A stretch of DNA of 32,000 nucleotides from Candidatus Saccharimonadota bacterium (GCA_000217635.1 CP001817.1:390001-422000); one strand, 5' to 3'; shown: positions 29,932 through 30,906, counted from the stretch's first letter. Notes: generated by a model from the sequence alone, not told the origin. Made by a program: numbers and translations.

Positions 29932-30906
29932 CTAATTATTTATAATAAATTTTAAATTAATAAAAGTATTATTTTTTGTAATAAATGATTTTTTTATTTT
30001 TTTCATTAATATATCTTTATTATTATCATAAATTAAATTAATATTTTTCCATTTACGTAACCATGTAAGTTGATGTTTTACAAGTTTACGCGTTGCCTGT
30101 AATGTATTACATATCATTTCTTGGTAAGTACATTTTTTTTCTAAATATTCCCACATTTGTTTATAACCAATGCTATTCATGAAAGGAAATGTATTTTTCC
30201 GAGATATTTGAGTATATAAATTTCGTACTTCTTCTTCTAAACCATTATTTAACATCTTTTGAAAACGAACACTAATTTTATTATATAATTTCTTTTTATT
30301 ATATGGAATTAAAGCAAATTGAAACACTTGATAAGGTAATTTTTTCTGACTTAAAGTTAATAATTTACTTAATGGAACTCCTCCAGAAACAAAAAAAACT
30401 TCTAAAGCTCTAATCACTCTTTGTACATCATTTATATGTATTTTAGAACTAGATGCAAAATCTACTTGTTTTAATCCATTAAATAATTTATTTTTATCAG
30501 CACAAAACAAATTGTTAAAGATGTAATCTCTAATTTTTTGATTAGATGTTGGAAGAGTAACTAAACCGTCTAATAAAGCTTTAAAATATAACATAGACCC
30601 TCCTACAAAAAAAGGAATTTTTTTTAAAGAGAATATATGTTTTATTTCTTTATATGCATCAATACAAAAATCAGCGGCAGAATAATTTTCATATATATTC
30701 TTAATATTAATTAATCTATAAGGTGTTTCGAAAAGTTGTTTTTCTGTTGGTTTATCTGTACCTATATTTAATTCTTTATATACTAATTTAGAGTCTACAC
30801 TTAATAATTCTATATTTGAAAATTTTTTTTTACTTCCATTGAAAATAAACTTTTTCCGATAGCCGTTGGTCCCATTAAAAAAAAATACTATGCGTTTAAA
30901 TTTCAT
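29932..30906 (-). CDS. miaA: tRNA dimethylallyltransferase MiaA; continuous ORF, but the P-loop segment is encoded in a different frame
   Basis: ...ELLSVDSKLVYKELNIGTDKPT..., FFVGGSMLYFKALL, RVIRALEV and IGYKQMWEYL match MiaA. Codons 8-28 of the ORF (FFFNGTNGYRKKFIFNGSKKK) do not. The alternative frame between the two 9-nt runs reads LMGPTAIGKSLFSMEV, against E. coli [17 protein letters not shown]. Confidence 0.88.
   Translation of the reverse strand: MKFKRIVFFFNGTNGYRKKFIFNGSKKKFSNIELLSVDSKLVYKELNIGTDKPTEKQLFETPYRLINIKNIYENYSAADFCIDAYKEIKHIFSLKKIPFFVGGSMLYFKALLDGLVTLPTSNQKIRDYIFNNLFCADKNKLFNGLKQVDFASSSKIHINDVQRVIRALEVFFVSGGVPLSKLLTLSQKKLPYQVFQFALIPYNKKKLYNKISVRFQKMLNNGLEEEVRNLYTQISRKNTFPFMNSIGYKQMWEYLEKKCTYQEMICNTLQATRKLVKHQLTWLRKWKNINLIYDNNKDILMKKIKKSFITKNNTFINLKFIINN

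Follow-up and report, generated by a model that had tools for sequence, protein, structure and literature searches.

The closest described relatives of the arrangement reported here are frameshifts in homopolymers of insect endosymbionts. Poly(A) and poly(T) frameshifts that are rescued by slippage have been described in Buchnera and Blochmannia, as later papers summarize that work (Tamas 2008, cited in PMC3017870 and 10.1101/2022.08.28.505559), and curators routinely annotate slippage-frameshifted genes as functional (PMC3017870, 10.1101/2022.08.28.505559). For single frameshifts, a report quoted in PMC3017870 gives ~30% full-length transcripts. The published slippage-rescued cases (Tamas; Wernegreen 2010; PMC3017870) are single visible shifts, which are often conserved across strains or species and verified by independent reads. 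A second kind is represented by the compensatory indels of Blochmannia, in which a pair within 20 bp leaves <6 bp out of frame and alters 1–2 residues of fast-evolving proteins (Williams & Wernegreen 2013; PMC3622351). A third is the dnaX-type −1 ribosomal frameshift, which combines the slippery heptamer A_AAA_AAG with stimulators. Apparent frameshifts also arise from 454 homopolymer miscalls, which are confined to long runs, are mostly of +/-1, and are dense in AT-rich genomes.

Here we analyzed the miaA gene of Buchnera aphidicola (Cinara tujafilina), hereafter BCt, in a window of record CP001817.1, that is, the whole stretch of 32,000 nucleotides from position 390001 to 422000 (G+C = 24%); all coordinates below are counted from its first letter. 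The window genes adjoining miaA match AEH39933-AEH39940. As written, the miaA ORF lies at 29932..30906 on the minus strand and encodes a protein of 324 amino acids, MKFKRIVFFFNGTNGYRKKFIFNGSKKKFSNIELL, in which the IPPT domain (PF01715, 234.5 bits) matches residues 42–285, spanning most of the protein. GenBank (AEH39941.1) and RefSeq (WP_013878078.1) both carry this written protein as an ordinary MiaA; thus, annotation did pass the ORF, as a preliminary description of this DNA had expected.

The gene begins, on the minus strand, with ATG AAA TTT AAA CGC ATA GTA T9 AAT GGG ACC AAC GGC TAT CGG AAA AAG TTT ATT TTC AAT GGA AGT A9 TTT TCA. The T9 run is located at 30877..30885 (A9 on the plus strand) and the A9 run at 30823..30831 (T9 on the plus strand); they start 54 nt apart, at gene positions 22 and 76, and enclose a segment of 45 nt (30832..30876, minus strand). 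The written frame of this region is FFFNGTNGYRKKFIFNGSKKK, with NGTNGYRKKFIFNGS between the runs, and is free of stops between them in BCt. It contains no Walker A motif (GxxxxGK[ST] after strand beta1), the corresponding residues being FFFNGTNGYRKK. The frame +1 between the runs reads FFLMGPTAIGKSLFSMEVKK and includes the Walker A motif GPTAIGKS, which is found in this neighbouring frame only. The 45 nt themselves encode (L)MGPTAIGKSLFSMEV in the hidden frame alone, a stretch that extends from the last part of strand beta1 through the P-loop to the first part of helix alpha1.

Removal of one T and addition of one A (T8/A10) leaves the length of the ORF unchanged, gives ...RIVFFLMGPTAIGKSLFSMEVKKKFSNIELLSVDS, and restores the Walker A motif. 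The repaired protein aligns with E. coli MiaA (2zm5) from residue 8 (249.8 bits), with FFLMGPTAIGKSLFSMEVKK over the P-loop, whereas the written one aligns from residue 26 only (229.9 bits); the E. coli match to BCt MiaA has E = 5e-73. The Pfam IPT family (PF01745) matches the MiaA N-terminus only after repair. Downstream MiaA motifs (SVDS and GGT/SxLY) are present as LLSVDSKLVYK and FFVGGSMLYFKALL, compared with LISVDSALIYK and LLVGGTMLYFKALL in E. coli. The preliminary description had claimed that the P-loop is encoded out of frame between two compensating 9-nt runs, that the written MiaA lacks Walker A, and that the hidden frame matches the P-loop of E. coli MiaA; the window sequence, its translations, this alignment, and the relatives considered below bear out all of this.

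The hidden frame also contains an ATG (the Met of LMGPT) at 30873..30875 on the minus strand, one base past T9, which opens a 21-codon ORF, MGPTAIGKSLFSMEVKKNFQI*, ending at ~30810. The equivalent ATG is the PGAP start of MiaA in several Buchnera genomes. Read in the same frame, the A9 run, preceded by GT, forms the slippery heptamer A_AAA_AAA. A/T runs of at least 9 nt are common (33 in the 32-kb window), and the non-random element is the conserved hidden frame rather than the presence of the two runs.

Comparison with other Lachninae Buchnera indicated which of the two frames is conserved. The hidden segment is identical at 14 of 15 residues to that of the two closest relatives (P0002 and P0003), and its match to MiaA greatly exceeds chance. 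At the sites of the two runs, T8 and A10 are the lengths in the closest relatives, whose open frame gives FFLMGPTAIGKSLFSMQVKKKF. Relative to them, the BCt T run has one T extra (T8 in TTT TTT TTA ATG, FFLM) and the A run is one A short (A10 in GTA AAA AAA AAA TTT, VKKKF). The relatives compared at the DNA level were Buchnera of Cinara confinis (L003, LT667503), L004, L006, L007, and L008. T8 and A10 occur exactly at the two BCt sites in L003 and L004/L006; therefore, the difference in BCt amounts to +1 T and −1 A. In L007/L008, where the T run is T10 and the A run is interrupted, the P-loop is likewise in frame. All of the MiaA proteins inspected from Lachninae Buchnera (at least 15) have FFLMGPTA[IV]GKS in frame, and all those retrieved follow the pattern ..[FL]FLMGPTA[IV]GKS...KK.F..[IVL]E[LI][LI]SVDSK.

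Codon differences between the runs were counted in both frames. Against L003, the ratio of synonymous to non-synonymous differences is 3:1 in the hidden frame and 0:4 in the written one; against L004 it is 4:1 and 0:5, and against L007 it is 6:2 and 0:7. The written frame is moreover interrupted by a stop in L003 and L004. Since most substitutions are silent when read in the hidden frame, whereas each of them alters an amino acid in the written one, the hidden frame is the one kept by selection. The view that it is stop-free and conserved, put forward in the preliminary description, is in line with these counts, and the P-loop-less version, whose possible sharing by relatives had been raised there, was found in none of the Lachninae Buchnera compared. 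Over residues 31–300, BCt MiaA has p-distances of 0.298 and 0.375 to the outgroups P0005 and P0006, respectively, compared with 0.316–0.335 and 0.423–0.426 for the intact sisters P0003 and P0002. Judged from these sequences, the rest of BCt miaA carries no sign of relaxed constraint and evolves no faster than in the sister lineages.

The 302-aa MiaA proteins of BCc and Buchnera of C. piceae, which start at MGPT, were considered as a recurrent N-terminal disruption and rejected, as 312-aa in-frame versions exist. Because these 302-aa forms are only start-codon choices, they provide no Cinara precedent for an MGPT start. Other sequences of the BCt gene were also sought. A contig scan with the repaired MiaA and narrow peptide patterns returned two distant non-Buchnera loci only, exact look-ups of the RpsF and MiaA of the window yielded no contig and no second assembly of the strain, and a BCt-specific 45-mer had no match in a metagenome scan.

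In Aphidinae Buchnera (L009–L011 and L013), the same region of miaA has a long run upstream of LMGPT that puts the start out of frame. A poly(A) of 10–11 parts the ancestral miaA ATG from P[VI]VIFLMGPT, whereas a run of 9 or 12 would keep the frame, and the PGAP start is at MGPT. In Buchnera of A. pisum, this out-of-frame run (~1460–1503) differs in length between assemblies, being A10 in L011 and A11 in L009/L010, and Buchnera of Microlophium carnosum (L013, ~260–303) has an out-of-frame A11 at the same place. Unlike in BCt, there is a single shift, several independent assemblies show it (A10, A11, A11), and the P-loop and the remainder of the gene share one frame.

A third run anomaly was detected near the 3' end of BCt miaA by DNA alignment with Buchnera of C. 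confinis. An A7 run at 29989..29995 (minus strand) lacks one base compared with relatives, the site being ATA AAA AAA TCA in BCt and ATA GAA AAA ATT in C. confinis. With one A added, the tail ...KKSFITKNNTFINLKFIINN is replaced by ...KKIIYYKK, and KIKKIIYYKK then corresponds to KIEKIINNNK of a relative; the 12-aa C-terminal extension of the written MiaA is thus a product of the frameshift at the short A7. With all three runs repaired, BCt MiaA has exactly 312 aa, the length of nine other Cinara Buchnera MiaA proteins (P0002, P0003, P0004, P0006, P0007, P0008, P0015, P0250, and P0251). Altogether, three of the eight A/T runs of at least 7 nt in miaA have a frame-changing length, and each time conserved sequence resumes in the shifted frame. 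The preliminary description had listed the two P-loop runs, both of which stand, and missed this one.

With the slippage-rescued frameshifts, BCt miaA shares +/-1 changes in A/T runs of at least ~9 nt (T9 and A9) within an intact, conserved gene whose downstream frame is kept. However, it has three shifts, of which the first two cancel and bracket the catalytic motif; it is known from one old record; and the shifted state is not conserved, L003, L004, L006, L007, and L008 all being in frame. As in the compensatory indels of Blochmannia, two single-base repeat indels (+1 and −1 versus L003) jointly restore the frame. Unlike those pairs, the BCt indels are 54 nt apart, beyond the 20-bp distance, and scramble 16 residues of a conserved enzyme including the Walker A loop. 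The A-rich heptamer GT A_AAA_AAA in the hidden frame fits X_XXY_YYZ, and a −1 slip on it gives the conserved VKKKF, similar to dnaX-type frameshifting. In contrast to dnaX, no upstream SD-like stimulator was seen by eye at the usual spacing, no stimulatory RNA structure was found in the 70 nt downstream of the runs (MFE −2 kcal/mol, z = +2.1), and the heptamer arrangement is not conserved in relatives. Programmed recoding is unlikely because such a structure is absent after either run, and programmed ribosomal frameshifting was rejected on this ground and because the relatives are unshifted. BCt miaA would be at most a variant of the slippage-rescue or compensatory-indel kinds. The BCt anomalies resemble 454 miscalls in that they lie in long single-base runs of genes that are intact in relatives.

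The rest of the window was surveyed by tblastn of C. confinis Buchnera proteins and by DNA alignments, with one NCBIfam match pursued. In trpS (13998–15010, minus strand), a T10 run at 14882..14891 causes a frameshift that leaves the N-terminal ~43 codons (MQKISKDILFTGIQPSGLLTIGNY...), with the TIGN motif, in the other frame. The GenBank TrpS (AEH39926.1) is a 298-aa truncation without TIGN, whereas the TrpS proteins of relatives have 333–344 aa and YLCFFCISDL over the run site (equivalent to T8). The ruvX (yqgF) gene (23084–23486, plus strand) has two shifts, at A9 (23284–23292) and A7 (23316–23322). The A7 is one short of A8, and the A9 is either one short of A10 or two over the A7 of the relative. 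Both halves of ruvX are ~70% identical to C. confinis RuvX, and RefSeq lists a 77-aa fragment only. In E. coli, ruvX is essential. A switch of frame was observed by tblastn and DNA alignment in trmB (23692–24373, minus strand) at an A7/T6 junction (23822..23834), and its 221-aa remnant is the hypothetical protein BCTU_371 in GenBank. In addition, an A7 at 25674..25680 (plus strand; A8 in the relative) shifts the yggX part of a mutY-yggX ORF. In C. confinis Buchnera, mutY and yggX form a single fused ORF of 432 aa, whose BCt counterpart is at 24464–25743 (plus strand).

The sbcB gene (26073–27335, minus strand) is a true pseudogene with multiple lesions, namely an in-frame stop and indels at short runs, and with lower identity, and RefSeq lists it as two fragments, both hypothetical proteins; thus, real BCt-specific erosion does occur. 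Twenty-four ribosomal-protein, EF, and tus genes at 1–13.5 kb can each be aligned to E. coli without a switch of frame despite long runs, and rpe, aroB, aroK, nfuA, bioH, and ssb are full length in the window. A working premise that essential genes are clean was overturned by trpS, and an early Fisher test of "intact" versus "shifted" genes was set aside as circular, the outcome having defined the groups.

Not counting sbcB, run-length frameshifts affect 5 of 43 window genes (miaA, trpS, ruvX, trmB, and yggX), compared with 0 of 13 in the orthologous stretch of C. confinis Buchnera (L003). The Illumina-sequenced Blochmannia vafer has eight frameshifted genes genome-wide (about 1%), and B. floridanus and B. 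pennsylvanicus have four each (PMC3017870). The density in the window is roughly 8-fold above that of verified endosymbiont genomes. Fisher's test of the window against the comparison genomes gave P ~0.001, a rough value, as the gene count of B. vafer is approximate (roughly 575 or more).

On balance, we favor homopolymer miscalls at both P-loop runs of the record as the explanation that best accounts for the out-of-frame loop. The conserved hidden frame, the T8/A10 of the relatives, and the density of frameshifts are direct observations, and base-calling of long homopolymers, rather than mutation, is probably the cause of the altered run lengths. The organism would then carry an ordinary 312-codon miaA with runs of T8, A10, and A8, encoding a normal P-loop MiaA, and CP001817 would mis-state these runs as T9, A9, and A7. 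Written residues 10–25 would be a frame-shifted artefact. Because the T and A miscalls would cancel and the intervening written frame happens to be stop-free, the ORF would have stayed open and the artefact unnoticed. That the three miaA repairs converge on the exact length of the family, that the shifted-frame sequence is perfectly conserved each time, and that essential genes are hit also suggests miscalling, as far as sequence comparison can tell. In the preliminary description, assembly error had been named merely as a refutation; it now leads because trpS, ruvX, trmB, yggX, and the third miaA run are shifted, whereas the compared relatives are clean.

Presumably, CP001817 was sequenced by 454 alone. 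The same laboratory sequenced C. tujafilina DNA by 454 FLX/Titanium, and a 454 consensus of 2014 needed Illumina polishing (PMC4122931). The deposited TrpS, a truncation without TIGN, argues against a systematic check of broken ORFs prior to deposition. Several points run counter to miscalling. The 24 clean translation genes are somewhat better explained by selection against real mutations than by random error; T8->T9 would be an over-call, whereas most of the other anomalies look like under-calls; and the poly(A) frameshifts just upstream of the P-loop are real in the Buchnera of A. pisum and Microlophium, being present in independent assemblies.

These counterpoints lend some weight to the idea that the run lengths are real and reflect recent slippage mutations (T8->T9 and A10->A9, plus a −1 near the 3' end), which is possible but which we regard as doubtful; it is about as tentative that only a low level of the P-loop enzyme would then be produced, or that miaA would be a very young pseudogene. 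Slippage rescue of poly(A)/poly(T) frameshifts is accepted in Buchnera and Blochmannia, the Aphidinae genes with A10/A11 between the ancestral ATG and PVVIFLMGPT offer a parallel, the frameshifts of the window cluster in accessory genes while the translation genes are clean, and sbcB is a case of genuine decay in the BCt lineage. RNA-seq mismatches also suggest ms2i6A37 in 4 of 4 Buchnera taxa, including A. pisum and S. graminum, in which miaA is called a pseudogene (PMC3439896). Against real runs stand the restriction of the shift to BCt among at least 15 relatives, so that it is not a conserved-type frameshift arguing for maintained rescue, and the density of shifts in the window, essential trpS included. 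Moreover, the compensating second hit lowers the yield of correct mRNA, and selection for enzyme function would therefore not favor it, although the second mutation might speculatively have been kept by avoiding premature termination upstream of the essential rpsF-rpsR-rplI. Homopolymer indels are known as an initial step in the erosion of genes and can reportedly outpace substitutions in a newly relaxed gene, as Moran et al. are said to have described in 2009, and the otherwise clean ORF is for this reason compatible with recent real hits. If T9 and A9 (and A7) were real, RNA-polymerase slippage at both runs would be one route to the enzyme, and a cheaper one would be initiation at the 30875–30873 ATG followed by one event at A9, either RNA insertion of an A (A9->A10) or a −1 ribosomal slip on A_AAA_AAA, both of which would give VKKKF. 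The preliminary description had overlooked this ATG, with which a single A9 shift would suffice, and had instead called for U9->U8 and A9->A10 on the same transcript. That double correction found no support, and transcription errors in Buchnera run against it: insertions fall in runs in 151 of 157 cases and deletions in 16 of 57, deletions in runs thus being the rarer error, and frame-restoring errors number 0 (PMC5574713). A P-loop hidden in an open ORF, with active enzyme coming from rare doubly corrected transcripts or from the ATG and an A9 slip, is an unlikely account of BCt miaA.

Combinations of the two causes appear very improbable, for example a real T9 tolerated via the internal ATG, a tolerance suggested by MGPT starts of the PGAP type, together with an under-called A10. 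A10->A9 is the usual direction of under-calling in long homopolymers and T8->T9 is not, the P-loop-frame ATG directly follows T9, and a frameshift ahead of this Met is tolerated in A. pisum-type Buchnera. However, the MGPT starts of BCc and C. piceae are merely start choices beside known 312-aa in-frame versions, and in E. coli MiaA, as in every relative inspected, the P-loop follows strand beta1 (IVFFL). That the written protein is itself a real functional product, with a diverged N-terminus or a programmed recoding site, is the least credible reading and hardly to be entertained. It would agree with the open written frame between the runs and with A_AAA_AAA being a classical slippery heptamer, but Walker A is absent from such a product, no RNA structure follows either run, and the arrangement is found in no relative. 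The stops in the written frame of L003/L004 and a substitution pattern in which every change there is non-synonymous effectively refute it.

If the runs of the record are miscalled, the public entries are wrong for MiaA (AEH39941.1/WP_013878078.1), TrpS (AEH39926.1), and the trmB, ruvX, and yggX fragments. A compensated pair is a type of error invisible to ORF-based checking, and such errors would slip past every check of that kind. BCt is a widely used reference in analyses of Buchnera gene loss and evolutionary rate, and other Cinara Buchnera assemblies have been scaffolded on its genome; miscalls would inflate both the inferred pseudogenes and the divergence at the amino-acid level. If, on the other hand, the tracts are real, slippage rescue would be extended, incrementally, to a pair of compensating shifts that is concealed and encloses a catalytic motif, and the gene would show, as a natural experiment, what amount of correct protein can come from double slippage. 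A compensated frameshift invisible to annotation would then throttle a tRNA modification that counteracts frameshifting, in a genome that abounds in slippery runs.

Two further length differences from C. confinis Buchnera were observed in the window. The 3' end of rpsF (29329–29679, minus strand) has a 2-nt gap by an A run, giving a protein of 116 aa compared with 123 aa, and C. confinis has 39 nt in an A-rich N-terminal stretch of dusA (20435–20450) that BCt lacks.
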